Made by a program: the position numbers and the translations under genes
The notes under the pieces: generated by a model
The model's database searches: none
Seen by the model: only the letters and a program-made list of their open reading frames with translations
What the model was told of the DNA's origin: nothing
Shown here: piece after piece, positions 11,693 through 50,472 of the stretch
How positions within the stretch are numbered: position 1 is the stretch's first letter
How the letters are laid out: every line of letters starts with the position of its first letter
Origin: Candidatus Omnitrophota bacterium
GTDB taxonomy: Bacteria; Omnitrophota; Gorgyraeia; Zapsychrales; Fredricksoniimonadaceae
Direction: 5' to 3'
Length of the DNA: 64,000 nt
Assembly: GCA_015232565.1 (NCBI GenBank)
Contig: JADFZK010000008.1
Coordinates: 2,580 to 66,579 of the forward strand

Positions 11693-11700
11693 CTTGTGGA

Positions 11701-14806: not shown

Positions 14807-14827
14807 CCTTATTAAGCGGGGGAGTGG

Positions 14828-19592: not shown

Positions 19593-19839
19593 AAAAACAC
19601 CTCCTACCAGAAATGGCGGAGGTGTTTTTCCTTTTTAGGGAAGATAGATGGTGCCCCGGAAAGGCTCCGCCCTTTCCGGGGCTCGTTGGTTTATGACTTA
19701 AAATAACTTACCAGAAATGGCGGAGGTGTTTTTCCTTTTTAGGGAAGATAGATGGTGCCCCGGAAAGGCTCCGCCCTTTCCGGGGCTCGTTGGTTCATGA
19801 CTTAAAATCACTAACCAGAAATGGCGGAGGTGTTTTTCA
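19593..19839 (+). repeat. Tandem 104-bp repeat (about 2.25 copies) built from two strong terminator-like hairpins
   Basis: Unit ACCAGAAATGGCGGAGGTGTTTTTCCTTTTTAGGGAAGATAGATGGTGCCCCGGAAAGGCTCCGCCCTTTCCGGGGCTCGTTGGTT[T/C]ATGACTTAAAAT[A/C]ACT[T/A] starts at 19606, 19710 and 19814 (partial). Hairpin 1 AAAACACCTCC/GGAGGTGTTTT is followed by a T-run. Hairpin 2 CCCCGGAAAGG/CCTTTCCGGGG. The sequence just 3' of the tRNA (ATCTATCTTCC) is the reverse complement of GGAAGATAGAT inside each unit. Confidence 0.85.
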
Positions 19840-27300: not shown

Positions 27301-30300
27301 CGTACGCATTTTGACCAGAACGCTAGCACGCGCACAAAACCTGATGCATCGATGAATAAAGACAGTGGGCGGCAAGCAAAACAAGTTCCTGACAGTTCGG
27401 CGAGTTTTGCGCTTTTGGGCGATAGCCTTAACCAGGCGGGTGAAACCTCATCTACGATCAGAACAGATTCGGGTCGGGATTATGCTCAATTAAAAACAAA
27501 CCCTGGATCGATCCCGGAGTTGTTTTTCGAGCAGTCGTTCAAGAATGACGAGGTGCGGAAGTTGTGGCGCTATGTTGACACAGAGATCAAGAAGCATGAT
27601 CCATTTATTGAACAAAAAAGTGAGGGGACACTGGTTAAGTCCTATAGCTATATGAATAGAGTTTTGCATTCTATAGATTCCAAGGTTAGCAATGGGGCTG
27701 TACGTTTGGTTAACGATCTACGGCTACTTAAGGCAGATGGGCCAGATTTGGAGCAGAAAGAGCCGTTACGTATTGGAGTGTTAGCTCTGACGGCTAATCC
27801 GCTTAACTGGGCTCACATTATGGCCGTCTTAAAATATATCGATGACGAGAACGCCAATGGCGTTGTCCTTCTTGTGCAGGGAGGTATGCAGTATAAGGAT
27901 CTTCCCGAGAGTGATCGGGTACCGGAAAAGGTGCGGCATGGGCTCGCCAAACGGGTGGTTGGCCATTTGGAGCCGCTTATTTGGTATACAGATGTTGGCA
28001 AGGGTAACGAGAATATCGGCGAGTTTAATGTGCACGAGTTATTGGCTTTGAATCCGAACCGGAAAATTGAACTGGATTATTTGGCTGGTACCGAAACCCG
28101 GGAAAGAACCTATGGTGTAATATGGCATTTTGTCGAGGGAGTAAAGAAGTTTGGCCTCCGTCCTGGTCATACGGTTGCCTTGCGCCTGGTGGCTATTGGT
28201 GAGTTTGGCCGTCAGGTTATGACCAATGAACGGTTGCAGGCGATGCTGGCTGAAGTTAGCGAGGAACAAAATTATTCGGGAGTTCCGTTAAAAGCGAAAG
28301 TGGTGGAGTATCCTGAAGAGCTGGTTATCCATTCTACCGATTATCGCCGGGGAGACCGCAGTCTGGTGCCGTCCGAGATCGACCATTATGCTCAGAGAAT
28401 GGGGTATTATGGTTATCCGCCGCGGGTATTGCGTAAAGGTCGATGGGTCTCGCTTTCTATGGATGAAGCCATTAAGGAACGCATGATGCCTTTGGTGCGT
28501 CAGTTGGCGAAACATATTCAGTCGAAATCCGGGCAAGGTATGGTCGTTACAATTGACGGTAACTCGGCGTCCGGGAAGTCTCTGGTAGGCGAATTGTTAC
28601 GTCAGGAACTCCGTTATAGGGGGCGTTTTGCTGAACTCTGGGGCCTTGACACGAGGCTTAAAGATCATGCTTACAGGCATGCGATCCAAAAAAGAGTAGT
28701 CGGGGAAAGTCTTTCTGCAAATGAGGAGGCATTGCTTTCGGCGAAAGAAAATGAGGGGTTGCGTTCAGGGCAGATCTATACGGAAGAATCCGCGTTCTTT
28801 GATAATGAAGATATCAGGAGTAAATTATCTGCTGTTCACGATTTCTTTCAAAGTGGTCGAGATAGATTTATCTTAAGGGTTGAGGATCCATATGATCAGC
28901 AGACAAAAACAGTATTGAGATCTCCGCTGGAGATCCCTTTGCAAGAAGGATCCGTTTTGATAGTTGAAGGCAAATATGCCCATTTACCAGAATTGCAACA
29001 GTATTCGGACTTAAAGGTCCGTGTGTTGGATGATGAGGATAGTGTGCGCGTTCGCTTTGAGTTGCGAACACGCAAGCAGAGTCCCAATGATGCGGATCGG
29101 CAGTTGGTATTCTTTCGTTGGGGTTTGACGCCTAGTTTTAACGTTTATTCTCAAGCGACACAAAATAGCATCGACGCAGTGTTTGATGTTAGGCCGGATG
29201 ACGCTGATAGTTGGCGACTGGACATTAAGGATTTTGCTGGTAATGCGGGGAAAGGTGGCCCTATTGGCAACGGAGGTGTCGAATTAGCCCGTAACGAGAA
29301 GGGCCTGCAGGCTCGTCATTTGGCTGAAGACTTGGTACATCGTGATTCATTATTAGATGGAGGCACTGATTTATCTAAGAAACCAGGATCGTCTGATAAG
29401 AATTTACATCCTGTGAAGCGTCAAGAAGTGGTTAAACAAATTCAGAAAGCATTCCCTTTCCATTCTAAAAGATTAGCAGGCGATCGTGAGATAGGATTGA
29501 TGGCTATAGGCCGGGAAGATTTTATGTTTCTTGGGCAAGTAACAAACTTTAACAATCATGCTAGTTTGCTTGATGGAACAACATATGCTGTCAAGGCAGA
29601 CGAAGTAAGCCTTCCCTGGATCAAGATAGATTTGATACGTGACAGAATCGGCAATCTGCGAAAAGTGGTATTGGTTGCTCCCAATCTTAGTAATCCACGG
29701 GTACAGATGTCTGAGAATTATCTTCGGGATATCTGGGGAGGAAAACGTGAGGAACTTCCAATAGATAATCTCGAGCCCAGTTATGTTAAAAGATTATCTA
29801 TTCAGATCGGGATGGCCGCCCGTCTTTTACTTGAGGCATGGGGAGAGCGAGAAGCCTGGGAGGTTCCGGTGGAGATTGATTTCCCCGGGTTTATGAATGC
29901 ACAGACGCTTGGTGAAGTGGCAACTGCCGACTTAACAGCCGAAAATGAAGATAATGAAATACATAAACTTTATCCCATGTCCCGTTCCAAAGCCCTTAAA
30001 TACCTAAGGGAAATATTCCGTGGTGGCGATTCTCACGTGATAGGAATGTGTGCTGTTGATGGTGATAATCGTTTTTTGATGGCTTTCGACTTTCCGGTTA
30101 CCAACACACATCATATGTTCTTGTTGTCGGATACGCCTTACGAGGAAGATCATTACGCTTTTATGAATCTGGATCTTACTTTTAAGAATCGTTCAATTTA
30201 CAGCTTGCGTATTATGCCTCCTTTCTACAGAAATCCGCGGGAAGAAATTTCTCCAGATCTTAGAAAGTTTAAGGGTATCACTAACTCATCGCACTTGCCG

Positions 30301-37428: not shown

Positions 37429-38289
37429 ATGAACAAGAACATTGAAGCCTTCCTTAAGCACATGGAGGTTGAAAAGAATTATTCTGTTCATACGATCCTT
37501 AATTACCGGCTTGACCTTGAGGAGTTCTTTACTTTTCTCGGGCATGATCGGGTGGCCGAAGTTGAGTATCCGACCCTGAGGCGTTTTTTGGCGGAATTGC
37601 GCTCTCATGAGCTCAGGCCGCGCAGTGTATCGCGTAAACTTTCGGCCTTGCGGTCTTTCTTCCGGTATTTGCAAAGGGAGGGCTTTATTGCCAAGAATCC
37701 GGCGGCCCTGATAGTAACACCTAAGCTGGACAAGGTCCTGCCGCATTTTATGACGGAGGACGACACCTTGAAGCTGGTGGATTCTTCTTTCGCCGATGAG
37801 AGTTCGGATCTGCGGGATAAGGCGCTTTTTGAGACCATGTATTCAACTGGCATCCGGGTCAGCGAGCTGGTGGGTTTAAGCCAGGACGATATTGATCTGG
37901 TTGGCAATATGATAAAGGTTTTTGGCAAGGGCAAGAAAGAACGTATTGTGCCGATCGGCCAGCCGGCGGTCACTGCGATAGCGGCGTATTTAAAAGCGCG
38001 TCCTTTTAAGAATCAAGCGGTGTTCCTCAACCGTTCGGGCACCAGGCTGTCGGCGCGTAGTGTGCGCAATATCATCAATAAACACATTCACAAGGCGGCT
38101 ATCCAGCAGAAGGTACATCCGCATATGTTCCGGCATTCGTTTGCCACTCATATGCTTAATCGCGGGGCGGACCTGCGGAGTGTCCAGGAGCTGTTGGGTC
38201 ATGTGAATTTATCGACTACCCAGATCTACACTCATTTGACTACCGAGAAGCTCAAGAGTGTTTACGACAAGGCGCATCCGAGGGCATAG
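37429..38289 (+). CDS. xerC: Tyrosine site-specific recombinase XerC/XerD (CodV-like)
   Basis: Catalytic RHRY context (HPHMFRHSFATHMLNRGADLRSVQELLGHVNLSTTQIYTHL). Sits directly after topA as in Firmicute topA-gid-codV synteny. Stop codon TAG forms the first bases of the left inverted repeat. Confidence 0.8.
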   Translation: MNKNIEAFLKHMEVEKNYSVHTILNYRLDLEEFFTFLGHDRVAEVEYPTLRRFLAELRSHELRPRSVSRKLSALRSFFRYLQREGFIAKNPAALIVTPKLDKVLPHFMTEDDTLKLVDSSFADESSDLRDKALFETMYSTGIRVSELVGLSQDDIDLVGNMIKVFGKGKKERIVPIGQPAVTAIAAYLKARPFKNQAVFLNRSGTRLSARSVRNIINKHIHKAAIQQKVHPHMFRHSFATHMLNRGADLRSVQELLGHVNLSTTQIYTHLTTEKLKSVYDKAHPRA

Positions 38290-38440
38290 TGTGGTGATTC
38301 ATATATTTTTTTACATTTAAATCACCACACTGGAGCAATGGAGCAATCGAGAATAGAGAAATAATAAAACATTTAGGCTCCATTGCGGTCAATTTTCGAT
38401 TTTCTAATGCTCTTCAAATGTAAAGAAGCGTTAGACTCAA
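38287..38440. repeat. Left copy of ~155-bp inverted repeat pair (IR-L) with outer 12-bp stem-loop
   Basis: Reverse complement of 49216..49371 at about 90% identity (hand alignment; about 10 mismatches or indels). Contains perfect stem AGTGTGGTGATT/AATCACCACACT (loop about 20 nt) and direct repeat GGAGCAATGGAGCAAT. Confidence 0.85.
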
Positions 38441-38455
38441 CACATTAGGGGACAT

Positions 38456-39718
38456 ATGTTTGTTATTTTCGATGTGATTTTTACGGTTTATTTTATCCTG
38501 TATTTGCCGGTGCTTTTTTTGCGCGGCAAGTGGCCCGCGGGCTTTTTGGAACGGTTTGGTTTTATACCGCCCGAGACCGTCAGGGCGCTGGCGGTCCGTG
38601 AGAATATTTGGGTGCATGCGGTCAGTGTGGGCGAAGTGGCCGCGCTGGAGGGGGTTATCAGGGGGTTACAGGAACGATTCCCTGCCCGGCAGGTGGTGCT
38701 GACTGTTACCACCCGCACCGGATATTCCTTTGCGCGTAGCAAGTACGATCCTCAGGTTATGGTGTTGTGGTCTCCTTTGGATCTGAGTATAACGGTTGAC
38801 AGTTTTGTGCGGGCTATCCGCCCGGTGGTATATGTTGCGGCGGAAACCGAGCTTTGGCCGAATCTTTTTGCGCGCCTGGCGGCTGATAAAATTCCGATCC
38901 TGGTGTTGAATGGCCGCATATCCGACCAGGCTTTTCCGCGTTATTGCTGGGTTAGAGGCTTGTTAAGAAGGACTATTGAGCGGGTCAATATTTTTGGTAT
39001 GCAGAGTGATCTGGATGCCGAGCGTATCATTTCCCTGGGCGCGGCAAAAGAAAATGTCCAGGTTATGGGTAATGTCAAGTTTGACAACTTGCCCGCACAG
39101 GCCGGGTTGGATCCGGGGCTTAAGGGCGCGGGGCCCGGCCAGTTGGTACTGCTCGGCGGCAGTACGCATCCGGGGGAAGATGAATTGTTGCTGGCTGTTT
39201 TTCTGGCCGAAAGAAAGTTGTTCCCGGACCTGCGGCTTATTTTGGTACCCCGCCATCCGGAACGCGCCCTTGTGATCCAGGAGCTGGTCCGTCAGGCGGG
39301 CCTTATTCCGGTTCTGTTTTCTGAACACAGTGGCCTGCCGGGCGCGGATGAGGTTTTGGTGGTTGACCGTATCGGCCAGCTGTTGCGGTTATATTCTTTA
39401 GCGACCGTGGTTTTTGTGGGCAAGAGTCTTACCGCCCAGGGCGGGCACAATATAATTGAACCGGCCATGTTTGCCAAGCCGGTGATCACTGGCGTAAATA
39501 TGCAGAATTTTCGGGATATTACCAAAGCCTTTCTGGCCGGGGAGGCTGTTTGGCAGGTTGTTGATGCTCCGGGCTTGCAGGATGCGGTGCACCGGTTGTT
39601 AGCTGATCCAGACCTGAGGTTGAATATGGGATTGCGCGCACAGCAGGTGATTCGGCGCAATAATGGAGCCACCCGACGTGCGGTGGATCTGGTGGCCGGG
39701 ATGATAAAAGGCAGATGA
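38456..39718 (+). CDS. waaA: 3-deoxy-D-manno-octulosonic acid (Kdo) transferase
   Basis: N-terminal membrane anchor and WVHAVSVGEV motif of KdtA/WaaA. 420 aa. Confidence 0.85.
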   Translation: MFVIFDVIFTVYFILYLPVLFLRGKWPAGFLERFGFIPPETVRALAVRENIWVHAVSVGEVAALEGVIRGLQERFPARQVVLTVTTRTGYSFARSKYDPQVMVLWSPLDLSITVDSFVRAIRPVVYVAAETELWPNLFARLAADKIPILVLNGRISDQAFPRYCWVRGLLRRTIERVNIFGMQSDLDAERIISLGAAKENVQVMGNVKFDNLPAQAGLDPGLKGAGPGQLVLLGGSTHPGEDELLLAVFLAERKLFPDLRLILVPRHPERALVIQELVRQAGLIPVLFSEHSGLPGADEVLVVDRIGQLLRLYSLATVVFVGKSLTAQGGHNIIEPAMFAKPVITGVNMQNFRDITKAFLAGEAVWQVVDAPGLQDAVHRLLADPDLRLNMGLRAQQVIRRNNGATRRAVDLVAGMIKGR

Positions 39719-40773
39719 AAAACGTGGTGGAATACCTTACCGGGATCGCTTTGGGCCGTGAACGCGGACCAGGCGCTTTGTGCCTGGGGCCATTACTGTG
39801 GTGCCTGTCGCTGGTATATGGCGTGGTGGTCTGGGTATATCGCGGACTTTACCAAACGGGGGTTTTAAGGTCATTCCGGGCCGGGGTGCCGGTTATCAGC
39901 GTCGGGAACATTACTGCCGGAGGTACCGGGAAAACGCCTTTTGTGGTCATGCTTTACAAAGTACTCCGGCAAGAAGGCTATCATCCGATGGTGCTGACCC
40001 GTGGATATATGGGCGGGCAATCTGGTTTTAGTGACGAGGCCAGGATGGTCCAGGAATTGATCGGCCCCAAGGTGTTCGTGGGAGCGGACCGGGTCAAGAG
40101 TTTTCAGGCCGCGCTGAAAGCCGGGCCTTTTGATTGTGTGATTCTGGATGATGGTTTTCAGCAATGGGGTTTTAAGCGCGACCTGGATATTGTTTTGCTG
40201 GACAGCCAAAAACCGTTCGGGAACGGAAATTTGATCCCGGGCGGGATCTTGCGTGAGACCGGGTCGGAGTTACGGCGTGCAGATATTATTGTGTTGACCC
40301 GCGCGGATCGGGTGAGCGAAACTGATCTGGCCTTACTGAAAGCCAGATTGAAGAAAGTATTTCCGCGGTCCGCGCAGGCTGTCGGGGTGCATGCATTTTC
40401 TGCGGCGCGGGATGTTTCGGGCGAGTTGAATAACGCGTTGAAAGATCTCTCCGGGCCGGCGGGGGCTTTTTGCGCCATAGGTGATCCGGCGAGTTTTCAA
40501 AGCACTCTGGCTGTTTTGGGAATCGAACTAAAGTTCTTTTCCTCTTTTCCCGACCATTATTCTTTTAATGAAGCGGATGTCCAAAGGATCATTGCGCAAT
40601 GCCGGGAGAAAGATGTAACCCGGGTTTTTATTACCCATAAGGACCTGGTAAAATTGCACGATCACCGGGGTTTGTTTAACGGGATCCGGCTGATCGTTAT
40701 CGACATGGAGTTGGTACTGACGTATGGCAAAACTGAACTCATTTCAAGCGTCCGTCGCCTGCGCAATTCTTAA
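39715..40773 (+). CDS. lpxK: Tetraacyldisaccharide 4'-kinase
   Basis: P-loop ISVGNITAGGTGKTP characteristic of LpxK. Start overlaps the waaA stop. Confidence 0.85.
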   Translation: MKNVVEYLTGIALGRERGPGALCLGPLLWCLSLVYGVVVWVYRGLYQTGVLRSFRAGVPVISVGNITAGGTGKTPFVVMLYKVLRQEGYHPMVLTRGYMGGQSGFSDEARMVQELIGPKVFVGADRVKSFQAALKAGPFDCVILDDGFQQWGFKRDLDIVLLDSQKPFGNGNLIPGGILRETGSELRRADIIVLTRADRVSETDLALLKARLKKVFPRSAQAVGVHAFSAARDVSGELNNALKDLSGPAGAFCAIGDPASFQSTLAVLGIELKFFSSFPDHYSFNEADVQRIIAQCREKDVTRVFITHKDLVKLHDHRGLFNGIRLIVIDMELVLTYGKTELISSVRRLRNS

Positions 40774-42700
40774 GGCGGTTTCATTTTTTATGCAGGCTCT
40801 CCCTCTGGGTTGTGCTCTGTGGATCGGCCGGAGGCTGGGCGAAATAGCTTTCTGGTTAAATCCCGGGAATCGCCGTAAAGTTTATCAGCATATGCGGATC
40901 GCTTTTGGGGCGGATCGTCCGGCCGGCAAGATTACCGCACTGGTTTGGGAGCTTTACCGCAATTATGGCCAGAATATAATCGAGATCGCCCGGTTGTCCA
41001 GGTACGCCGCTTGCGGGCTGGATGAGCAAGTGGATATACAGGGGCGGGAACATGTTGACCGGCTTTTATTGCAAGGCCGCGGGCTCATCTTCTTATCGAT
41101 ACATTCCGGCAACTGGGAATTGTCAAATATGGCCGGCAGTATGCGCGGGCATCCGTACAATATGGTCGCCAATTATCTGGACCATGTTAATAAGGTCGCG
41201 GACTTGCTGGATTCCTGGAGAAAGAGCGGAGGGTGCAAGATCATAAATCCCGGGATCGGTGGCCGGGAGATAATAAAAGCTCTGAAGCGCAATGAAATCG
41301 TTACTTTGGTGGCCGACCAGGGTGGGAGTGACGGATTGCTTTTACCATTTTTTGGCCGCGAAGCGTCCATGTCCACTGGAGCTGTCAGGATCGCACTGAA
41401 ATACGGCGTGCCCATATGCCTGGTGGATATTGCCCGGGTTGGCGGGGCCAAACATCGTTTGCGCGTTTTGCCTTTTGAATTGACGGCTACGAAAGTGGTG
41501 GAACGGGATGTGCATGATAATATGCTCAGGATCGTGGCGCATTTTGAAGCCTGGACCCGGGAGCATCCGGCGGAATATTTATGGTTTTATAAGACCTGGA
41601 AATATGCCCGCGACCGGAGGATATTAATACTGGATGACGGCCGGACGGGACATTTGCGTCAATCCGAAGCCCTGGCGCGGCAAGTTTCGAGCGCTTTTAA
41701 AGAGCGGGGACTTAAGGCCATACTGAATACGGTTACAATAGAGTGGCGTAGCGGGCTGGCTCCGTTGATCCTGGGGGCCTGCTCACTGTTGCGTTTTCTG
41801 GGCGGCGGACTGGGTCTTCTGGCGCTTAAACCGTTCTTGACGGCGGAGAGTTATGCGCTGTTGTGTTCGCTGAAACCGGATGTGGTTATATCTTGCGGCA
41901 ACAAGAATGCCTGGGTTAATGTTTGGGCCGCGGCTGATAACGGAGCGCGCAATATTTGTATTTTGCGCCCGGGGGCTCTTGGCCCAGGCCAAAATGAATT
42001 TGATCTGCTGGTTATGCCCGGGCATGATGTTAAAGGCCGCGTGCCCGCTAACGTGGTGGTTACCAAAGTGGCTCCGAATTTGGTCGATCAGTCTTATTTA
42101 GATGATAATGTGCGGGGTTTGACCAGTCGGTTCTCACATTTGAAATTGCATGGCCGGTCGAGGATCGGGCTCCTGATCGGAGGCGACACCAAAGGTTTGG
42201 TTCTGGGAGAACAGCAGGTGCGCGTGGTTATTCATCAGTTAAAGGAAGCCGCCCAGAAATATAGTGCGGACATCCTGGTAACAACCTCGCGCCGTACCAG
42301 CCCGGCGGTTGAAGCGTTGGTGGCGCGTGAATTCAATGATTTTTCCAGTACGGCACTGATTATCCTGGCCTCCCGGAATAACGTGCCGGAAGCGGTGGGC
42401 GGTATTCTGGGGTTATGCGACCTGGTGGTGGTGTCCGGCGAAAGCGTATCGATGCTCTCGGAAGCGGCATCGTCGGGGAAGAAAGTGATCGTGTTCCCGG
42501 TTGATGGCCCCGACCGCAAGCCGTTGATTAATAAATATTCTGCTTTTGCCGAGATGTTGAGCGCCGGAGGGCATGTGGTTTATGCCCGCACCACCCAGGT
42601 GGCGGATGCCGTGGACCGCTTGTTAAGAGATAAAGTCCGGACAATTTCCCTTGAAGACAACGCGACGCTTTTAGAAGCGGCCAGAAAGATAGTACGATGA
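40724..42700 (+). CDS. Fusion of lipid A late acyltransferase (LpxL/HtrB family) and ELM1/DUF1022-type domain
   Basis: N-terminal half has the lipid-A acyltransferase motif LSIHSGNWELSNM. C-terminal half starts RILILDDGRTGHLRQSEALARQV, typical of the ELM1 (PF06258-like) nucleotide-sugar-binding fold. 658 aa. An alternative start at 40790 avoids overlap with lpxK. Confidence 0.65.
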   Translation: MAKLNSFQASVACAILKAVSFFMQALPLGCALWIGRRLGEIAFWLNPGNRRKVYQHMRIAFGADRPAGKITALVWELYRNYGQNIIEIARLSRYAACGLDEQVDIQGREHVDRLLLQGRGLIFLSIHSGNWELSNMAGSMRGHPYNMVANYLDHVNKVADLLDSWRKSGGCKIINPGIGGREIIKALKRNEIVTLVADQGGSDGLLLPFFGREASMSTGAVRIALKYGVPICLVDIARVGGAKHRLRVLPFELTATKVVERDVHDNMLRIVAHFEAWTREHPAEYLWFYKTWKYARDRRILILDDGRTGHLRQSEALARQVSSAFKERGLKAILNTVTIEWRSGLAPLILGACSLLRFLGGGLGLLALKPFLTAESYALLCSLKPDVVISCGNKNAWVNVWAAADNGARNICILRPGALGPGQNEFDLLVMPGHDVKGRVPANVVVTKVAPNLVDQSYLDDNVRGLTSRFSHLKLHGRSRIGLLIGGDTKGLVLGEQQVRVVIHQLKEAAQKYSADILVTTSRRTSPAVEALVAREFNDFSSTALIILASRNNVPEAVGGILGLCDLVVVSGESVSMLSEAASSGKKVIVFPVDGPDRKPLINKYSAFAEMLSAGGHVVYARTTQVADAVDRLLRDKVRTISLEDNATLLEAARKIVR

Positions 42701-44790
42701 AAATATTGCAGATCCTTCCGGAAATGAATGTTGGCGGTGTGGAGCGGGGCACCCTTGACCTGGCAAAATATATCGCCGCTCACGGGCATGGCTCGGTGGT
42801 GGTTTCCAACGGAGGCACTCTGGTCCCTTTGCTGGAGGCGCAGGGTACCAGGCACTACACTTTGCCGGTGCATCGCAAGAACTTGTGGACCATATGGGAA
42901 AGTGTAAGCGCGCTGGAGAAGATCATTCGTGAGGAGAAGGTGGATATTGTACACGCGCGTTCACGCGTGCCGGCGGTCATAGCTTATTTTGCCTGCCGGA
43001 GGACCGGGGTGGATTTTTTGACCACCTGCCATGGCTATTATTCCCGTAATCTATTCAGCCATGTTATGGGTTGGGGCAAGCTGGTGATCGTTATCAGCGA
43101 GATCGTCGGCCGGCATATGATAGAGCATTTCGGGGTGCAACCGGAGAATGTCCGGCTGATCCATCGTAGTGTTGACCTGGACAAATTCAAGTTCCGTGAG
43201 CGCCAGACCGGTCGGTCGGAGTTTATTGTCACCATTGTCGGCCGTATTAATCCTATCAAGGGCCATACCTATTTTCTGAAAGCGATGGCCAAGGTTATGC
43301 GCCAACAGCCATTTGTGCGGGCGCGGATAATAGGCGATGCTCCGGCCAATAAACAGGCTTATAAAGAAAGCCTGCTTTTGCTGGTTCGTCGGCTGGGTAT
43401 CCAGGATAAAGTTGAGTTCCTGGGGAACCGCAGTGATATTCCGCAATTGCTGGCCGACAGCGACGCCCTGGTGCTTTCCACGGTAACCCAGGAAGCTTTT
43501 GGCCGGGTGATAATAGAAGCCCAGGCCGTAGGGGTTCCGGTGATAGCGGCCAAGGTGGGCGGGGTGGTAGATATTGTGGAGCATGAAAAGACCGGATTGC
43601 TGGTTTTGCCCAAGGATCCCGATGCTATTGCCTCGGCGGTGTTGCGGCTGGTCAGCGATCGTAAGCTGGGAGATGTGATGTGCGCCGAAGCCCGTCGCCG
43701 GGTGGAACAGCGCTTTACCGTTGAGCAGATGGCGCTGAAGACTATTGCGGTTTACGATGAACTTAAGCATTGCCAGAATATCCTGGTGATCAAGCTGAGC
43801 GCGGTGGGCGATGTAATATTGGCAACGGCTTCTTTCAAAGCATTGAGGGAGACTTTTCCCCGGGCGCGTATATGTTGTTTGACTTCCAGGGAGAGTGCGG
43901 TAATTTTACATAATTGCCCGTACCTGGATGATGTGGTGGTTTATGATCACCAGGGCAAGGGCCGGGGGTTGAAAGGTTTCTGGAAGCTGATCGTGCGTTT
44001 GCGCAAGTACCGTTTTGACAAGATCATCGACTTGCAGAACAATCTGCGCACCCATTTACTCGCTTTTCTGTGCATGCCCCAGGCCAGTTATGGCTATCGG
44101 AATAAGAAACTGGGTAAATTGCTTTCTCATGGTATTGCGGACTCCGATCCCCTGATGCCGCCGGTCCAACACCAATTTAACGTGTTGAAAGAACTGGGCG
44201 TGCAGTATCACGACAGTGTCCGTCTTGAGCTTTGGCCTCGCGCCGATGATGTGGCGTATGCCCGGGAGCTGTTGCAGGGCGAGTGGATCGATGAGAAATG
44301 CCACAAGATCGTGGGCATTAATATTGCGGCCTCCGAGCGTTGGGTAACCAAGAATTGGCCAGTTAAGGCTATTGCCGAGTTGTGTGATTTGCTGGCGGCC
44401 GACAATATCCGGGTGATCATTACCGGAATGGAAAAAGACCAGCGTTTTGCCCGGGAGGTCCTGGCTCAGGCCCGGTCCAAGCCGGGGATCGTGGCGGGCA
44501 AGACCACGATTTTACAGCTCGCGGCATTAATCGGGTTTTGTCATGTTTACGTTTCCAGTGATTCAGCTCCTTTGCATATAGCGGCGGCCATGAAGGTGCC
44601 GGTGGTGGCTCTTTTTGGGCCCACGGATCCGGTCCGGCATATTCCTCCGGCGGACAGATTGACTGTAGTGCGCAAGGCAATAGAATGCACGGCTTGTTAC
44701 AGTACTAAATGCCGTAAAGGGACTCTGGCTTGTATGAAAGGCATTACCGCCGCCGAGATCTATGGGGAGATAAAGAAATTCCTGCTATGA
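42697..44790 (+). CDS. Bifunctional glycosyltransferase: GT4 (GT-B) N-terminal domain fused to GT9 heptosyltransferase-like C-terminal domain
   Basis: N-terminus MKILQILPEMNVGGVERGTLDLAKY... and later EAQAVGVPVIA (GT4 E-x7-E region). C-terminal half begins NILVIKLSAVGDVILATASFKALRE, the GT9 heptosyltransferase signature. 697 aa. Confidence 0.75.
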   Translation: MKILQILPEMNVGGVERGTLDLAKYIAAHGHGSVVVSNGGTLVPLLEAQGTRHYTLPVHRKNLWTIWESVSALEKIIREEKVDIVHARSRVPAVIAYFACRRTGVDFLTTCHGYYSRNLFSHVMGWGKLVIVISEIVGRHMIEHFGVQPENVRLIHRSVDLDKFKFRERQTGRSEFIVTIVGRINPIKGHTYFLKAMAKVMRQQPFVRARIIGDAPANKQAYKESLLLLVRRLGIQDKVEFLGNRSDIPQLLADSDALVLSTVTQEAFGRVIIEAQAVGVPVIAAKVGGVVDIVEHEKTGLLVLPKDPDAIASAVLRLVSDRKLGDVMCAEARRRVEQRFTVEQMALKTIAVYDELKHCQNILVIKLSAVGDVILATASFKALRETFPRARICCLTSRESAVILHNCPYLDDVVVYDHQGKGRGLKGFWKLIVRLRKYRFDKIIDLQNNLRTHLLAFLCMPQASYGYRNKKLGKLLSHGIADSDPLMPPVQHQFNVLKELGVQYHDSVRLELWPRADDVAYARELLQGEWIDEKCHKIVGINIAASERWVTKNWPVKAIAELCDLLAADNIRVIITGMEKDQRFAREVLAQARSKPGIVAGKTTILQLAALIGFCHVYVSSDSAPLHIAAAMKVPVVALFGPTDPVRHIPPADRLTVVRKAIECTACYSTKCRKGTLACMKGITAAEIYGEIKKFLL

Positions 44791-45881
44791 AAATACTTCT
44801 CCTGGCCAACCATTTTAATACCGGAGGCATAACCAGTTACCTTTTGACCCTGACCCGGGCTTTTATTGGCCAGGGGCATGAGGTGATAGTGGCTTCATCT
44901 TCCGGCAATATGGTGGCAGAGCTTAAGGCGTCCGGGGCTCGGCACATTGACCTGGCGTTCAACGTGAAATGCGAGGTACATCCCCGGCTTTTATTTCTGG
45001 TCCCTCGCCTGGCCGCTGTGGTGCGGGAAGAAAGAATAGATGTTATTCACGCCCAGACCCGGGTAACCCAGGTATGTGCGGAGCTGGTCTCTCGTTTGTG
45101 CCGGGTAGCTTGTATTTCAACCTGCCATGGTTTTTTTCGTTTTCACTTAGGCCGTAATCTTTGGCCGGCCTGGGGGACTAAGGTGATAGCGATCAGCGCG
45201 CCGGTTAAACAACATTTGCGGCGTGATCTGTACGTTCCGGAAGAAATGATCGCTTTGATCCCTAATGGCGTGGATCTGGCGCGTTTTGTGCCACTTGAGC
45301 CGGAAGAGCGTTCCGTCCTGCGCGGCCGCTGGGGGTTAAAAGATGAGCCTGCCATAGGTATAGTGGCGCGTTTGTCGGATGTGAAAGGGCATCAGTTCCT
45401 TGTTAGGGCCATGCCGGAGATATTGGCCCGGTTCCCCAACGCCAAATGTTTGGTCTTTGGCTCTGGTCCTATGGAAGACGAGCTTAAAAATCTGGTCCAC
45501 GAAAATGGCCTGGACGATAATGTTTTATTTTATCCCGTGATCAATAGGACCTGCGAAGTTCTGCCTTTACTTGATGTGTTTGTTATGCCGTCTTTGCAGG
45601 AAGGTTTGGGGCTTTCGGTGCTGGAAGCTGCGGCGATGGGCTTGCCTGCGGTCGTCAGTCGGGTTGGCGGTTTGCCGGGGGTGGTTCTGGAGGGAGAGAC
45701 CGGCTGGCTGGTGGAACCTCAGGATGTTGCCGGGTTGGCTCGGGCGATCATTTCATTGCTGGCGGATCCGGCAGGTGCTCGTAAAATGGGCGCGCAGGCC
45801 AGGGAATTCGTAGCCCGGAATTTTGCGGCGTCAGTAATGGCGGAGCATACAATGGCGGTTTATAAATCAGCGGCTGGATAA
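44787..45881 (+). CDS. Glycosyltransferase family 4 (GT-B)
   Basis: MKILLLANHFNTGGITSY start (ORF-track start 44730 trimmed to the Met that overlaps the upstream stop). EAAAMGLPAVVSRVGG motif. Confidence 0.75.
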   Translation: MKILLLANHFNTGGITSYLLTLTRAFIGQGHEVIVASSSGNMVAELKASGARHIDLAFNVKCEVHPRLLFLVPRLAAVVREERIDVIHAQTRVTQVCAELVSRLCRVACISTCHGFFRFHLGRNLWPAWGTKVIAISAPVKQHLRRDLYVPEEMIALIPNGVDLARFVPLEPEERSVLRGRWGLKDEPAIGIVARLSDVKGHQFLVRAMPEILARFPNAKCLVFGSGPMEDELKNLVHENGLDDNVLFYPVINRTCEVLPLLDVFVMPSLQEGLGLSVLEAAAMGLPAVVSRVGGLPGVVLEGETGWLVEPQDVAGLARAIISLLADPAGARKMGAQAREFVARNFAASVMAEHTMAVYKSAAG

Positions 45882-45902
45882 ATTTCAAATGGCGGAGAAA
45901 GA

Positions 45903-46280
45903 ATGAAGATATTGATCGTTGACGATGAGACAGATATATCCGAGCTTTATGTGCGGTATTTAAAACGTTCCGGTTTTACCGATACCATGGTGGCGCATAA
46001 TTCCCAGACCGCTATCGAACTTATTGAGAAGGATCGGCCCAACCTGGTGGTGCTGGATATTAGCCTGGGAGCGGATTCCAAGGGCACCGGGATGGATGTC
46101 CTGGCCCGGGTCAGCAAGACAGCGCCCGAGTGCAAGATCTGTATGATGTCTGCGTATCGCGAAGAATATGAAAAGATTTGCCTGGATCTGGGGGCGTATG
46201 TGTTCATTTCCAAACCTTTTCAGCCGGATGTCCTTCTTGAGATCATCAACCGGGCCAGCCAGGCGGGCATGTCAGCATGA
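45903..46280 (+). CDS. Stand-alone CheY-like response-regulator receiver domain
   Basis: MKILIVDDETD (acidic pocket), conserved Asp in LVVLDISLG, and the conserved Lys region. 125 aa with no output domain. Embedded between glycosyltransferase genes. Confidence 0.7.
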   Translation: MKILIVDDETDISELYVRYLKRSGFTDTMVAHNSQTAIELIEKDRPNLVVLDISLGADSKGTGMDVLARVSKTAPECKICMMSAYREEYEKICLDLGAYVFISKPFQPDVLLEIINRASQAGMSA

Positions 46281-47278
46281 ATAACGTTCTGGTCGTTTCG
46301 GTGAACTGGCTGGGAGATGTGGTATTTTCCACCCCTGTTTACCAGAATCTTAAAGCTAATTTTCCTGGTGTGCGGATCACTGCGCTGGCCGTGCCGCGTG
46401 TTCAACCGGTACTGGCTTTATGTCCGCAGGTGGATGAAGTGATAGTTTATGATGAAGACGGCGCCGATCGTTTTTTGCCTGGAAAACTCCGCTTGATCGC
46501 GCGTTTGCGCCAGCACCGGTTTGACGCTGTTTTTTTCCTGCGGCCTTCTTTTTCCCGCGTGAGTTTGGCTTTTCTGGCCGGGATCCCGGTCAGAGTTGGT
46601 TTTAATACCAGGAATTTTCTGGGGCTGATCAATCGTCCGGTAAGTCCGGACGGCGTTGACCAGATGCACCGCCTGGACGGCTACCTGGCTTTGTTGGCGA
46701 GATTCGGGTTAACAATACAAGAACGCACCTGCTTGCTGGCTCCGGATAATGACAGCCGTTTAAAAACGCAAAAGCTTTTATTGTCCAAGGGGATCCGGGA
46801 GAATGAGGATTTTTATGTGTTGAATACCGGAGGTAATTGGGACCTGAAACAATGGCCCGAGGAGTGTTTTGCGGAACTGGCATCCCGGATCAGCCGGGAG
46901 AAAGGCCTGAAAGTAGTGCTTACCGGGGCGGCTGGTGATCGCGACCGGGTAATGCGGATCGCCGCTTTGTCGGGTGGAGCTCCGGTTGAGTTGGCCGGGG
47001 AAACCGATCTGCCCGGTCTGGCCGCAGTGTTCCTTGCCGCCCGGGGAATGATATCGGCGGATTCCGGGCCATTACATTTGGCGTCGGCGCTGGGAGTGCG
47101 TTCGGTGGGCATTTTTGGGCCGACCCGTCCCGAGATCACCGGGCCGCGCGGCCGGGGAGAAAGTGTGGTTTTGATCAGGGATGTAGCCTGCAATAAGGCG
47201 CCCTGTTATTATCTGGAATGTCCGGAGAACCGTTGCATGAAAGCGGTGGAGGTTGATGATGTTATCAAGGTTCTTTAA
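46277..47278 (+). CDS. Glycosyltransferase family 9 (ADP-heptose:LPS heptosyltransferase-like)
   Basis: NVLVVSVNWLGDVVFSTPVYQNLK N-terminal signature. C-terminal GPLHLASALGV..VGIFGPT motif. Confidence 0.75.
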   Translation: MNNVLVVSVNWLGDVVFSTPVYQNLKANFPGVRITALAVPRVQPVLALCPQVDEVIVYDEDGADRFLPGKLRLIARLRQHRFDAVFFLRPSFSRVSLAFLAGIPVRVGFNTRNFLGLINRPVSPDGVDQMHRLDGYLALLARFGLTIQERTCLLAPDNDSRLKTQKLLLSKGIRENEDFYVLNTGGNWDLKQWPEECFAELASRISREKGLKVVLTGAAGDRDRVMRIAALSGGAPVELAGETDLPGLAAVFLAARGMISADSGPLHLASALGVRSVGIFGPTRPEITGPRGRGESVVLIRDVACNKAPCYYLECPENRCMKAVEVDDVIKVL

Positions 47279-48188
47279 GCCCCCGAAAGTAAGGACGATA
47301 TTGTTCATATCAATGAGCAATATCGGTGATGTGATCCTGACTTTTCCGGTGTTTGACGCTTTGGCGGAAGCTTATCCCCAGGCGCTTTTCTCGGTAGTGG
47401 TCTCTCCTAAAGCCAAGTCTTTTTTTGAGGGCCACAAGAGGGTCAAAAGGGTGCATATCCTGGAGAAACAATCGGGGGTGCGGGCCAAGGTCCAGTGGCT
47501 GTCTGATTTGCGGCGGGAGAAGTTTGACCTGGTGGTGGATATGCGCAACTCCATGTTGCCGTTTCTGGTGCGTTCGCGTCGCCGTACCCGTCCGGTCCTG
47601 CTGGGTGAAAGCAACGGGCATATGCGTGACCGCCATTTGCGGCGCCTGCGGACAGCGTTGAAGAATATCCCGCTGGCGCGTGACCGCCATTCTTTATACG
47701 GAGCTAAAGGCGAGGAGCAAGCGGCCGGTCTTTTATTGCACGGCCTGAAAAATTTTGTGTTGTTAGCTCCCGGGGCGGCCGATGCCCGCAAGCAATGGAC
47801 CTCCGCAGGTTTTTCCCAGGTGATACGTTTTTTGGTAAATGATGCGCAGGTTCCGGTGGTGTTGGTTGGTGACCGTAAGGACCTCAAGTTTGCGGAGCAG
47901 GTGATGAGCTACGGTCCGGTCGGAGTCTTGAACCTTTGTGGTAAAACTTCGCTTAAAGAGCTGGCTTTTATATTAAACCAGGCTCGCCTGGCGGTGGTGA
48001 ACGATAGCGGCGTAATGCATTTAGCCAGTTATTTGGATATTCCGACCATCGCTTTGTTCGGCCCCACCGACCCGGATCTTTACGGGCCCTGGGGTAAAAA
48101 GGCTTTCTGTTTGCGCAGTCCTACGGGTCGAATGGCCGACATTGGACCGCGCATGGTTATCGATGTTATCGCCCGGGAGCTGACATGA
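47253..48188 (+). CDS. Glycosyltransferase family 9 (heptosyltransferase-like)
   Basis: ILFISMSNIGDVILTFPVFDAL and DSGVMHLASYLDIPTIALFGPTDP motifs. Confidence 0.75.
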   Translation: MMMLSRFFKPPKVRTILFISMSNIGDVILTFPVFDALAEAYPQALFSVVVSPKAKSFFEGHKRVKRVHILEKQSGVRAKVQWLSDLRREKFDLVVDMRNSMLPFLVRSRRRTRPVLLGESNGHMRDRHLRRLRTALKNIPLARDRHSLYGAKGEEQAAGLLLHGLKNFVLLAPGAADARKQWTSAGFSQVIRFLVNDAQVPVVLVGDRKDLKFAEQVMSYGPVGVLNLCGKTSLKELAFILNQARLAVVNDSGVMHLASYLDIPTIALFGPTDPDLYGPWGKKAFCLRSPTGRMADIGPRMVIDVIARELT

Positions 48189-49192
48189 CCCCGGAATTCA
48201 GGAATATTCTCGTGGTGCGCACTGACCGTATGGGGGATATGATTCTGACTATTCCCGCGATCCGCGCTTTGAAACAAAAATACCCCCGGGCCCGTCTTGT
48301 GGTTTGGGTCAGCCCCTCGACCCGCGGCCTGGTGGACGGGTTGGCTTTTATTGATGAGGTTATTGTGCAGGACCCCAGGCCTGGCTGGGCGGGATATTTA
48401 CGGATGATCCGTTTCTTGCGAAAGTGCCGCTTCGACCTGGCGGTAGTGTTTCATACCAAACAAAAAACTAATCTGGCTTGTTTCCTGGCCGGGATTCCGA
48501 TGCGTCTGGGATACCGGAACGGGAAGTGGGGTTTTTTTCTGTCCCATCCGGTTAAAGATGAACGTCATTTGGGGATCAAGCATGAGCTGGATTATTGCCT
48601 GGACCTTTTGAGAGCGGTGGGGGTGGAGAAGGCGGATCCACGTCTGGAGTTGGGCCGGGACCGGTCTGCGGAGGAATGGGCGGAGCGGTTTACGGCCGAA
48701 TTATCCGGTCCGGGGCCTTTGGTTGCGCTTCATCCGGATGCCAGCTGTCCTACCAGGCATTGGCCGGTGCCGAGTTTTGCTATTGTTGCAGCCAGACTGG
48801 CCAGTGAAATGAACGCCCGGGTGGTTATTGTTGGAGGGCCGACGACCAGTGTTTTTGCGCCTCGTATACCAGGCCGCGATCTTACCGGTCAGTTCTCATT
48901 GACGCAATTAGCCGCCTTCATTAAACGTTGTGACCTTTTGATCTCGAATGATTCCGGACCGGTACATTTGGCCGCGGCTGTTGGGACTCCGGTCATCTCA
49001 TTATTTTTGAGGAAACAACCGGGCATTAATCCCGAACGCTGGCGGCCATTAAGTGAAAAGGCCGTGCTTTTATTGAACAAACCGGGAGAAGAGATCGTGG
49101 TGGGCCCGGATAACCGGGTCATAAGCGGCCGATACGATTCCATTACTCCGGATGAGGTAATAAAAGCCGCAGCCCGTCTTCTTTGCCAGTAA
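48185..49192 (+). CDS. Glycosyltransferase family 9 (heptosyltransferase, RfaF/WaaC-like)
   Basis: NILVVRTDRMGDMILTIPAIRALK and NDSGPVHLAAAVGTPVISLF motifs. Confidence 0.75.
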   Translation: MTPEFRNILVVRTDRMGDMILTIPAIRALKQKYPRARLVVWVSPSTRGLVDGLAFIDEVIVQDPRPGWAGYLRMIRFLRKCRFDLAVVFHTKQKTNLACFLAGIPMRLGYRNGKWGFFLSHPVKDERHLGIKHELDYCLDLLRAVGVEKADPRLELGRDRSAEEWAERFTAELSGPGPLVALHPDASCPTRHWPVPSFAIVAARLASEMNARVVIVGGPTTSVFAPRIPGRDLTGQFSLTQLAAFIKRCDLLISNDSGPVHLAAAVGTPVISLFLRKQPGINPERWRPLSEKAVLLLNKPGEEIVVGPDNRVISGRYDSITPDEVIKAAARLLCQ

Positions 49193-49215
49193 GCAGTTAT
49201 TTCTTACTAGTGGAG

Positions 49216-49371
49216 TGAGTCTAACGCTTCTTTATGTTTTAAGAGAGCATTGGAAAATCGAAAATTGACCGCAATGGAGCCAAATGTTTTATTATTTCTC
49301 TATTTTCGATTGCTCCATTGCTCCAGTGTGGTGATTCAAATGTAAAGAGATATGTGAATCACCACACTAGC
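49216..49371. repeat. Right copy of inverted repeat pair (IR-R) with outer 13-bp stem-loop
   Basis: Reverse complement of 38287..38440 (about 90% identical). Stem AGTGTGGTGATTC/GAATCACCACACT at its distal end. Occupies the gap between the last GT9 gene and hldE. Confidence 0.85.
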
Positions 49372-49446
49372 CTGGCAGTAGTTTTTGACAGGCTTTTCGA
49401 ACTGTGTTACCATTAAAACTCTTTTTTCGACCAACATACTAAAACT

Positions 49447-50472
49447 ATGCCTAAATATACTAATTTAATAGCCAATTTTCGCAATTGCCATATCCTGGTG
49501 GTCGGCGACCTTATACTTGACCAATATATAAAGGGTACTGTGGACAGGATCTCTCCGGAGGCGCCGGTGCCTATTTTGCTTCAGCAGGAGGAATTCTATA
49601 CTCCGGGCGGGGCGGCCAATGTGGCCAATAATCTGAGCAGTCTGGGAGCTAAAGTTACGGTGGTTGGCCGTATAGGGCCGGACCTGGAAGGGGAATTACT
49701 TAAGCGGGTGCTCAAAGAACGTAAGATCCGTACGGCGGGTATAATGTCGGATAGCCGGGTACACACTATTCTTAAAACTCGAGTAGTTGCGCATCAACAG
49801 CAAGTAGTGCGTATTGACCGTGAGAAAGTGGTCGACGATTCTGATGGCTGGTTCTATGACGAAAAGATAGCGCCATTTATCCATAAACATTTTGCGGACC
49901 TGGACGGGGTGATAATCTCCGATTATGGCAAAGGAATTGTTCAGCCCCCTCTGGTGGATGATCTTACAGCCCTGGCCCGCCAGGCCGGGATACCTATTGT
50001 TGTTGACCCCAAGGTTGAGCATTTAAAGTTTTACGGCCCGGTGACGTCAATTACTCCGAATCGCAAGGAGGCCGAGAACGCCTTACGCAGTCTGGAACCG
50101 GATACGCGCAAAGCTTTTGGGATTACCCAGGTTCGGCTGGATTCTCTCGACGCGGTTAAAAAAGCTGGAGTTGGCCTTTTGAATTATTTAGGCATTGCTT
50201 CGCTTTTGATCACGCTTGGGGAAGACGGCATGTGCTTGTTCGAGGAAGGGAAAGTGCCGCTGCATATTCCAACCCGGGCCCAGGAGGTTTTTGATGTTTC
50301 GGGGGCGGGTGACACCGTGATCGCGGTTTTTGCCCTGGCCCTGGCGGCCGGAGCCAGGAAAATGGATGCCGCCGATATTGCCAATCATGCCGCAGGAATA
50401 GTGGTGGCCAAGATCGGCGCCGCTTCGGTCACTATCGCCGAGTTGGCAGATTCTTTAAGGGAGCCGGCATGA
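49447..50472 (+). CDS. hldE: D-glycero-beta-D-manno-heptose-7-phosphate kinase (HldE/RfaE domain I only, PfkB family)
   Basis: ILVVGDLILDQY..G...R.SPEAPVP N-terminal signature of RfaE domain I. C-terminal GAGDT motif. 341 aa, so no adenylyltransferase domain II. Confidence 0.8.
   Translation: MPKYTNLIANFRNCHILVVGDLILDQYIKGTVDRISPEAPVPILLQQEEFYTPGGAANVANNLSSLGAKVTVVGRIGPDLEGELLKRVLKERKIRTAGIMSDSRVHTILKTRVVAHQQQVVRIDREKVVDDSDGWFYDEKIAPFIHKHFADLDGVIISDYGKGIVQPPLVDDLTALARQAGIPIVVDPKVEHLKFYGPVTSITPNRKEAENALRSLEPDTRKAFGITQVRLDSLDAVKKAGVGLLNYLGIASLLITLGEDGMCLFEEGKVPLHIPTRAQEVFDVSGAGDTVIAVFALALAAGARKMDAADIANHAAGIVVAKIGAASVTIAELADSLREPA

Follow-up and report, generated by a model that had tools for sequence, protein, structure and literature searches.

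Inverted repeats bracketing a lipid A/core gene block in an Omnitrophota genome are probably insertions of a MITE-like element

A 64-kb window (the 64,000 nucleotides analyzed here) from a Candidatus Omnitrophota bacterium contains nine consecutive lipid A and core-oligosaccharide genes lying between two long inverted repeats, the left of which begins at the stop codon of a tyrosine recombinase gene. Are these repeats the arms of an invertible, phase-variable lipopolysaccharide (LPS) cassette, as a first-pass annotation proposed, or do they belong to a family of ERIC/MITE-like intergenic repeats, the alternative that it offered? The anatomy of the repeats fits the second reading, although only two copies are seen in the 64 kb. 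From this anatomy and from the corresponding loci of relatives, we conclude that the repeats are probably two independent insertions of one ~156-bp non-autonomous MITE in an old and conserved LPS array, and not the arms of a switch.

Extent and anatomy of the repeat pair

The two sequences were originally described as ~155-bp reverse complements with ~90% identity, and we recovered them as 38287-38448 (+) and 49207-49370 (-) with ~92% identity. A repeat search of the window divides the pair into inverted arms of 88 nt (38287-38374/49282-49369, 94% identity) and 41 nt (38373-38413/49244-49284, 95% identity), which are separated by a 1-bp indel. The copies match over 155 nt at 92.3% by blastn, and a global alignment of both copies with their flanking repeats has 148 identical columns out of 165, the longest perfect tracts being 31, 29 and 23 bp. 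The outer layout described previously is correct, but the homology continues slightly beyond the stated inner ends, as far as 38448 and 49207, and closes in both copies with a short flanking direct repeat. Given the ~8% divergence between them, neither copy is a very recent copy of the other. The features of the locus are listed below.

37429-38289 (+): xerC, a housekeeping-type tyrosine recombinase gene (Pfam Phage_integrase and SAM_1; TIGR02224)
38287-38289 (no strand): left flanking direct repeat, upstream side, TAG (or TA), identical to the xerC stop codon (alignment of filled and empty sites)
38288-38331 (+): left terminal hairpin with a 12-bp perfect stem, formed by the 5' terminal repeat AGTGTGGTGATT and its internal inverted copy
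38290-38445 (+): left MITE-like body, 156 bp, 33% GC, hairpin end facing xerC (empty sites, terminal inverted repeats, fold)
38332-38347 (+): direct repeat, two copies of GGAGCAAT, pairing with GGCTCCATTGC (38376-38386) in the predicted fold
38446-38448 (no strand): left flanking direct repeat, downstream side, TAG, 7 nt upstream of the waaA ATG
38456-49192 (+): nine-gene lipid A/core block (Pfam; collinear orthologs in relatives)
49207-49210 (no strand): right flanking direct repeat, inner side, CTAG, 14 bp past the GT9c stop codon
49211-49366 (-): right MITE-like body, 156 bp, 37% GC, in the opposite orientation, hairpin end facing the kinase gene
49367-49370 (no strand): right flanking direct repeat, outer side, CTAG (sequence; alignment with relatives)
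49385-49413 (+): predicted sigma-70-like promoter, TTGACA-17-TACCAT with TG, for the hldE kinase-kdsBADC-lptCAB genes (conserved columns)
49447-50472 (+): D-glycero-beta-D-manno-heptose-7-phosphate kinase gene, the first past the right element (Pfam PfkB)

Bacterial MITEs are short (<200 bp, or at most ~200-300 bp), non-coding and A+T-rich, with terminal inverted repeats and stable stem-loops; they carry 5'-TA-3' at their termini and a target-site duplication, and are recognized by comparing filled with empty sites (Delihas 2008, PMC2229807). Each copy here is a 156-bp body between short direct repeats. All six frames of both copies carry stops, and the element is therefore non-coding; its GC content is 33-37% compared with 50% across the window. 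Imperfect terminal inverted repeats of ~38 bp are found in each copy, with 26/39 matches in the left (permutation p ~5e-5) and 23/38 in the right (permutation p ~3e-4), when the 5' end is compared with the reverse-complemented 3' end. Additionally, the 3' end matches the 5' model in reverse in an nhmmer self-comparison (E = 0.024), and the element is self-complementary over its whole length (z 3.8-5.1).

Both copies are predicted to fold as RNA far better than shuffled sequences (z = -5.5 for the left copy and -5.3 for the right). The stem-loop previously reported at each outer end is present, perfect in the right copy (AGTGTGGTGATTCA-N16-TGAATCACCACACT) and with a 12-bp perfect stem in the left; it is the sole palindrome in the copies, with arms of 12-14 bp and a 16-bp spacer. 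A second stem is predicted at ~38404-38435 in the left copy, ~10 nt from its 3' end. Also as reported, the direct repeat GGAGCAATGGAGCAAT occupies 38332-38347 with its complement at 49309-49324, and the first three bases of the left copy are the TAG stop codon of the recombinase gene (37429-38289). The flanking repeats contain TA on both sides of each copy. They form a perfect 4-mer around the right copy (CTAG...CTAG), whereas those of the left copy are perfect only as TAG/TA and imperfect as a 4-mer (ATAG vs TTAG). The difference between TAG/TAG and CTAG/CTAG suggests that the copies inserted separately and did not arise by segmental duplication.

What counts against a MITE is copy number, as two copies are known from the 64-kb window where a MITE family normally has many dispersed copies. 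Three diagnostic sub-motifs of the repeat each occur exactly twice in the 64 kb (0.00-0.4 expected from shuffles), and these two are the only copies of the ~160-bp repeat within the window. We identified no further copy in JGI metagenomes, IMG/VR, plasmid and phage collections or ~200 kb of related Omnitrophota loci, and six-frame peptides of the element had no match in the protein database. GTDB representative genomes likewise gave no copy, with a 20-mer query that overlapped the octamer repeat and matched unrelated microsatellites only. There is no autonomous IS with matching ends in the window, where the terminal 14-mer (<=2 mismatches) occurs only in the two copies.

The hairpins also suggest a palindrome-associated element mobilized by a transposase of the IS200/IS605 type (HUH, single-strand). 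Such an element inserts beside a specific tetranucleotide without true duplication, so that the left (C/A)TAG would be the target and the right (C/T)TAG the element end. Prominent subterminal hairpins at both ends (38288-38331 and ~38404-38435) and the same tetranucleotide-like motif beside both copies are consistent with this origin, which we nevertheless consider unlikely. The ends are significantly related as inverted repeats over ~38 bp and the whole unit is self-complementary, properties typical of DDE-transposon-derived MITEs and not required of IS200/IS605 ends. Additionally, the 5' hairpin begins at the very terminus rather than subterminally, and no TnpA, TnpB or RAYT gene is evident beside either copy.

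Alternatively, the element could be immobile and act as a functional RNA or regulatory module (a leader, terminator or sRNA, for example), copied to both borders of the operon; its fold is very stable (z about -5.4), and the copies lie exactly at transcription-unit borders. However, Rfam offers no match at the gathering threshold and only noise at E<=1, the element holds no predicted promoter, and no canonical terminator T-tract follows the large hairpin. The copies face opposite ways where nearly all genes are on the plus strand, so the same RNA role is impossible for both. A functional RNA would also leave the flanking direct repeats and terminal inverted repeats unexplained, and none of the orthologous sites in relatives carries the element. 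We regard this explanation as very unlikely.

Orthologous loci and the adjacent recombinase

We compared the locus with seven distinct contexts from relatives whose XerC proteins are 67-84% identical to the one described here. The order and orientation of dprA-topA-xerC-waaA-lpxK-...-GT9-hldE kinase-kdsBADC are identical in every relative fetched. In six of the seven contexts (XerC 78-84%) the xerC stop codon is followed by 2-6 nt and the waaA ATG, with no element (junctions read in L006-L009, L022, L023, L026 and L027), whereas here it is followed by 156 bp, TAG, 7 nt and ATG, a gap of 166 bp. The seventh context (L024/L025, XerC 67%) has a different insert of ~4 kb at this junction. The spacer between GT9c and the kinase gene is 57-70 bp in three aligned loci (L010, L011 and L012), which lack the element, compared with 254 bp here; the additional 160 bp lie upstream of the promoter common to the relatives. 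This predicted TTGACA-17-TACCAT promoter is conserved and falls outside the right element. Two more contigs, compared by gene positions only, have the same 70-bp gap. Both positions are empty in close and distant relatives alike wherever the junction is readable, and by this comparison the repeats appear as lineage-specific insertions.

The gene content of the block is as first annotated: waaA, lpxK, an LpxL-ELM1 fusion, a GT4-GT9 fusion, GT4, a receiver domain (REC) gene and three GT9 genes. The encoded proteins are 60-83% identical to their collinear orthologs in relatives, and those of the flanks 73-98%. Being orthologous and collinear in relatives, the block was not imported with the repeats, and it appears to be ancestral at its present place and in its present orientation. 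The kinase encoded past the right element scores 344.9 bits against TIGR02198, just below the cut-off of 345, and is 100% identical to MBF0386812.1.

The recombinase scores 356 bits against the NCBIfam XerC equivalog model TIGR02224 (cut-off 335.15), 322 bits against the XerD model TIGR02225 (under the cut-off of 329.6), and 69-72 bits against models of FimB/E-type invertases (cut-offs 221-222). It is 100% identical to MBF0386802.1 from a Candidatus Omnitrophica MAG, and more than 100 orthologs occur in Omnitrophota, nearly all of 286 aa, with 64-84% identity. The order shikimate kinase-dprA-topA-xerC is kept in five fetched contexts, down to 67% XerC identity; xerC adjoins topA in every context fetched, and its place in dprA-topA-xerC is conserved with or without the repeats. 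No XerC paralog was detected in the 64-kb window by tblastn. Judged by sequence and gene order, the protein appears to be a conserved, vertically inherited XerC ortholog in a housekeeping neighborhood.

An invertible cassette would have XerC, or another site-specific recombinase, flip the nine genes and so turn core-LPS synthesis ON or OFF. In favor of this reading, the block does lie between inverted repeats with 92% identity, beside a tyrosine recombinase gene. Additionally, promoter prediction gives no sigma-70-like site between xerC and waaA, which are 2-6 bp apart in relatives; transcription of the block thus probably starts upstream, and in principle a flip would cut the block off from that start. 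However, the repeats were inserted recently and are found in none of the relatives read, while the adjacency of xerC to the LPS genes is old, so the recombinase did not co-evolve with them. No dedicated invertase is tied to the repeats: the neighboring gene encodes a protein above the XerC equivalog cut-off, with ~70 bits where the FimB/E-type models ask for ~221, and it lies by topA and ahead of the waaA block in every related context fetched, none of which has the repeats.

The structure of the repeats also argues against a cassette. Tyrosine recombinase core sites have a spacer of 6-8 bp, whereas the palindrome here has 16 bp between arms of 12-14 bp. At 8% divergence, the copies are unlikely to exchange sequence often. 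The arms of invertons are 10-40 nt long (PMC11892184); in place of such short inverted repeats holding a recombinase core site we find whole 156-bp transposon-like units, ~4x the length of a typical inverton arm, with terminal inverted repeats and duplications of their own. Inversion would set nine genes against a region of uniform plus orientation and positive GC skew. Among the genes of the block, waaA and lpxK are essential in most diderms. No contig in the opposite orientation was seen among the relatives fetched, which is weak evidence as these lack the repeats. With the repeats absent from relatives that have the same gene order and orientation, we consider a phase-variable cassette driven by the adjacent XerC-type recombinase extremely unlikely.

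Proposed origin and consequences

Insertion of a MITE suggests the following history. The host array would have been the ancestral, vertically inherited (dprA-)topA-xerC-waaA-...-GT9 / hldE kinase-kds-lpt arrangement of Candidatus Omnitrophota. A transposase supplied in trans presumably recognized the ~12-38 bp terminal inverted repeats, with a putative consensus end of TA followed by GTGTGGTGAKTC, and would have acted on targets containing TA, namely ATAG at the xerC stop codon and CTAG. The target would have been duplicated on insertion, thereby retaining the xerC stop codon. Insertions may have been tolerated in the 5 bp separating xerC from waaA and in the interval from the last GT9 gene to the promoter of the next operon, and as the copies landed in opposite orientations, they came to form an apparent bracket around nine genes. 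Rather than a switch, the bracket is probably a side effect of where a tightly packed genome can accommodate insertions.

Likely consequences of the insertions are stretches of strongly folded RNA, one separating xerC from waaA and one within the 3' UTR that follows GT9c. The copies are also a likely substrate for rare inversion by homologous recombination, which would probably be deleterious. It is most improbable that they have since given rise to a whole-operon switch by letting the 10.8-kb block flip, through RecA-dependent recombination or the transposase of the element; if they had, a subpopulation of Omnitrophota would have altered or silenced LPS core synthesis.

The MITE-like element has not been described before and comes from an uncultured phylum, Omnitrophota; beyond annotation its significance is small. 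The left insertion is a clean case in which a stop codon is both reused and restored within a near-overlapping gene pair. The locus also indicates that, where long inverted repeats lie by a tyrosine recombinase gene and surface-polysaccharide genes, empty sites should be sought in relatives before an invertible cassette is proposed. If the element has many copies genome-wide, it could find use as a strain marker and may account for breaks in the assemblies of such MAGs.

Comparison with known systems

Invertons such as fimS with FimB/E and the capsule promoters of Bacteroides share with this locus inverted repeats near surface-polysaccharide genes and a nearby tyrosine recombinase gene. The segment between inverton arms is usually a few hundred bp long and contains a promoter. 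The arms themselves are 10-40 nt (PMC11892184), whereas here 156-bp transposon-like units surround 10.8 kb of biosynthetic genes. The recombinase here is a XerC equivalog rather than a member of an invertase family, and relatives with the same adjacency of recombinase and LPS genes have no such arms.

ERIC/IRU elements are imperfect palindromes of ~127 bp with TA termini that occupy transcribed intergenic regions (PMC2229807), as the copies here do. However, ERIC elements belong to enterobacteria and have terminal inverted repeats of just 7 bp; the likeness is one of anatomy, and sequence similarity is not expected. The RUP elements of Streptococcus pneumoniae, which are IS630-related MITEs, are intergenic and have a duplicated target containing TA and short terminal inverted repeats (PMC2229807). 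RUP is 107 bp long and tied to IS630-Spn1 by similarity of its terminal inverted repeats, whereas no parent IS was found for the present element in the window. A CTAG target with duplication of TA is the classical preference of IS630. The 4-bp CTAG duplication of the IS5 group fits the right copy as well as the IS630 pattern does.

The Correia/NEMIS elements of Neisseria are bacterial MITEs of ~107 and ~155 bp (PMC2229807). The longer form matches the present element in size, and both have terminal inverted repeats, TA termini, a target duplication and A+T-rich, non-coding sequence (PMC2229807). Both give long stem-loop transcripts (predicted here), insert between closely spaced genes and are recognized from filled and empty sites (PMC2229807). 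Correia elements number in the hundreds in Neisseria, compared with two known copies here in another phylum, Omnitrophota, and have documented IHF site, promoter and RNase III functions; the two are alike in their anatomy.

Structure and occurrence of the inverted repeat pair

We identified two copies of an approximately 156-bp element in inverted orientation on either side of a nine-gene lipid A/core block. The first-pass annotation had claimed such a pair, and a repeat search, blastn and global alignment all recover it. The repeat search of the window returns inverted arms of 88 nt at 94% identity (38287-38374/49282-49369) and of 41 nt at 95% identity (38373-38413/49244-49284), with a 1-bp indel between them. 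The two copies are 92.3% identical over 155 nt by blastn, and in a global alignment that includes the flanking repeats 148 of 165 columns are identical, the longest perfect tracts being 31, 29 and 23 bp. The genes listed in that annotation are matched by Pfam calls.

Repeat copies and gene order in the window
38287-38448, + strand: left copy, read from the sequence as TAG 38287-38289 (the xerC stop codon), body 38290-38445, TAG 38446-38448
49207-49370, - strand (opposite orientation to the left copy): right copy, read from the sequence as CTAG 49207-49210, body 49211-49366, CTAG 49367-49370
Element ends: terminal sequence GTGTGGTGAKTC
Gene order (Pfam): topA, xerC, (repeat), waaA, lpxK, LpxL-ELM1 fusion, GT4-GT9 fusion, GT4, receiver domain, GT9 x3, (repeat), heptose-7-phosphate kinase, kdsB, kdsA, kdsD, kdsC, lptC/A

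The element has terminal inverted repeats (TIRs). Aligning the first ~38 nt with the reverse-complemented 3' end of the same length gives 26/39 matches in the left copy and 23/38 in the right (permutation p = 5e-5 and 3e-4); the two ends have in common TA(G/A)TGTG.TGA.TC at the tip and, further inward, TTTACATTT. Each copy as a whole is imperfectly palindromic (z = 3.8 and 5.1 versus shuffles), and the predicted folds have energies of -45 and -50 kcal/mol, with z close to -5.4. The GC content of the copies is 33–37%, compared with 50% for the window, and stop codons occur in all six frames. The outer hairpin and GGAGCAATGGAGCAAT repeat noted earlier are both in the sequence; the perfect stem-loop described at each outer end forms between the 5' terminal repeat and an inverted copy of that repeat lying close by within the element. 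No sigma-70-like promoter is predicted inside the element, and Rfam searches at gathering and permissive thresholds returned only noise. Shortly after the last of the three GT9 genes (GT9c), the inner end of the right copy has one weak terminator-like stem (49212-49230 on the + strand). If the nine genes form one mRNA that runs through both copies, about 150 nt of one copy would be complementary to the other. Pairing between them could join the waaA 5' leader to the 3' end after GT9c, and the duplex may be a substrate for RNase III.

Three sub-motifs of the repeat occur exactly twice each in the 64-kb window (0.00–0.4 expected from shuffles), and nhmmer with a profile built from both copies finds no third copy there. 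In GTDB genomes the pattern TGGAGCAATGGAGCAATCGA, which overlaps the octamer repeat, has five matches, all to unrelated (GGAGCAAT)n microsatellites. Among JGI metagenomes an internal 22-mer has 0 matches, and the terminal hairpin pattern has nine, at loci that do not contain the rest of the element. Two scans of IMG/VR gave 0 matches, plasmids and phages gave no blastn match, and approximately 200 kb of related Omnitrophota loci contain no copy by blastn or nhmmer. A query of concatenated six-frame element peptides identified no spurious ORFs on other copies in the protein database.

Elsewhere in the window, tRNA-Ala (19501-19577) is closely followed by a head-to-tail repeat (19605-19838) of a 104-bp unit, present as two copies at 98% identity and the beginning of a third. 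Within each unit lie two GC-rich, terminator-like hairpins, …CACCTCC…GGAGGTGTTTTT and CCCCGGAAAGG…CCTTTCCGGGG. This tRNA/repeat region is followed by a single 3121-aa open reading frame (21391-30756, + strand).

Empty sites in related loci

The window recombinase is 100% identical to MBF0386802.1 and the kinase to MBF0386812.1, both from a Candidatus Omnitrophica MAG; the ten-step gap between the accessions fits the nine intervening genes. We compared the window with neighborhoods of XerC orthologs (84, 83, 83, 83, 78 and 67% identity) and kinase orthologs (89 and 88%) drawn from independent ENA, Logan and NCBI assemblies. The genes occur in the same order and orientation: (shikimate kinase-dprA-)topA-xerC-waaA-lpxK-lpxL/ELM1-GT4/GT9-GT4-REC-GT9x3-kinase-kdsB-kdsA-kdsD-kdsC-lptC-lptB-....

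Both repeat positions are empty in the relatives (six xerC-waaA contexts on the left, three fetched loci on the right). The xerC-waaA spacer is 2–6 nt in the six contexts, with junctions such as GCATAG GCCCC ATG, GCGTAG CGGCC ATG and GCTTAG CCGGC ATG. The window junction reads GCATAG [156 bp] TAG GGGACAT ATG, and removing the 156 bp with one TAG yields a junction like those of the relatives. On the right, the distance from the last GT9 stop to the kinase ATG is 57–70 bp in the three fetched loci, and two contigs listed without DNA also have a 70-bp gap between these genes. The window has an extra 160 bp, CTAG [156 bp] CTAG, upstream of a promoter-like TTGACA-17-TA(C/A)CAT motif with extended TG (49385-49413) that is conserved in the three related loci with an aligned spacer (L010, L011, L012). 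This predicted promoter probably marks the start of a heptose kinase-kdsBADC-lptCAB unit, and its conservation before the kinase indicates that the LPS genes form at least two transcription units.

In the context with 67% XerC identity (L024; GCA_964572155.1, CAZNDZ010000001.1), xerC and waaA are separated by another insert (10861-14874), different from the element in the window and ~4 kb long, encoding a 1061-aa protein without a Pfam match and a MazE/PIN toxin-antitoxin pair. The junction thus tolerates insertions, and it seems to be a repeatedly used insertion point.

The nine block genes have collinear orthologs in the relatives and the block is therefore native. The orthologs share 60–83% amino acid identity, versus 73–98% for flanking genes (for example lptB, 96–98%, and topA, 90%). 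Judged from these comparisons the block is evolving faster than its flanks, and faster evolution is common for LPS glycosyltransferases. The GC content is slightly higher in the block (38456-49192, 52–56%) than just outside (46–50%). A foreign cassette between two mobile elements, whether a composite transposon or an integron-mobilization unit, was ruled out by the nine collinear orthologs in relatives that do not have the repeats.

Domain arrangements in the block include an LpxL acyltransferase fused to an ELM1-like (PF06258) domain (40724-42700), a GT4 fused to a GT9 (42697-44790), and a stand-alone receiver domain among core glycosyltransferases (45903-46280). Relatives with XerC identities as low as 78% keep all three, and at 67% the two fusions are still present.

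The adjacent recombinase and inversion of the block

The first-pass annotation favored an invertible, phase-variable LPS cassette switched by the recombinase next to the left copy. Our analysis does not support this reading. The adjacency of xerC to the LPS genes is ancient while the repeats are new, so the presence of the recombinase is not due to the repeats. Against the NCBIfam XerC equivalog model the protein scores 356 bits, above the cut-off of 335; its scores against FimB/E-type invertase models, with cut-offs of ~221, are ~70 bits. Over 100 Omnitrophota sequences are orthologous to it (64–84% identical, nearly all 286 aa), and dprA-topA-...-xerC is a conserved housekeeping arrangement in Bacillus too.

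The repeats themselves also argue against a switch. Their sole palindrome has a 16-bp spacer, too long for a tyrosine-recombinase core, and the 8% divergence between copies argues against frequent exchange. Unlike the arms of invertons, which are 10–40 nt (PMC11892184), the arms here are complete transposon-like units. We also considered a Xer-site (dif/pdif-like) module and rejected it, as no dif-like 11-6-11 architecture is apparent by eye and the palindrome halves are 16 bp apart.

Gene content and transcription count against the cassette as well. The block holds waaA and lpxK, and inversion would oppose nine genes to a mostly + strand region with uniformly positive GC skew. The xerC-waaA interval has no predicted promoter, and inversion would therefore cut the block off from upstream transcription. 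It would leave untouched the predicted promoter of the kds/lpt operon, which is situated outside the right copy. Inversion of the block looks like a costly event rather than a tuned switch. A rare RecA-mediated inversion between the copies is physically possible.

Probable assignment to miniature transposable elements

The repeats are probably a MITE (a small non-autonomous transposable element), with two copies known, both within the 64-kb window. The fallback reading of the first-pass annotation, a MITE/ERIC-like repeat, is supported as to the kind of element, on the basis of the anatomy and the filled and empty sites. The flanking repeats differ between the copies, which indicates two separate insertion events and not a duplicated junction. 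The targets, ATAG on the left and CTAG on the right, would suit duplication of TA within a CTAG-like site, as preferred by IS630-type elements, and are also consistent with IS5-type duplication of 4 bp (YTAR). No parent element that would tell the two apart was found in the window. An origin from IS200/IS605-type elements is a minor alternative, and the significant TIRs count against it.

Bacterial MITEs have been described as non-coding, A+T-rich elements of <200 bp that have TIRs, 5'-TA-3' termini, target-site duplication and stable stem-loop transcripts and are defined from a comparison of filled with empty sites (Delihas 2008, PMC2229807). All of these features are found in the two repeats, the stem-loop as a predicted fold. 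MITEs are a known kind of element, and what is new is the member represented by the repeats of this Omnitrophota window.
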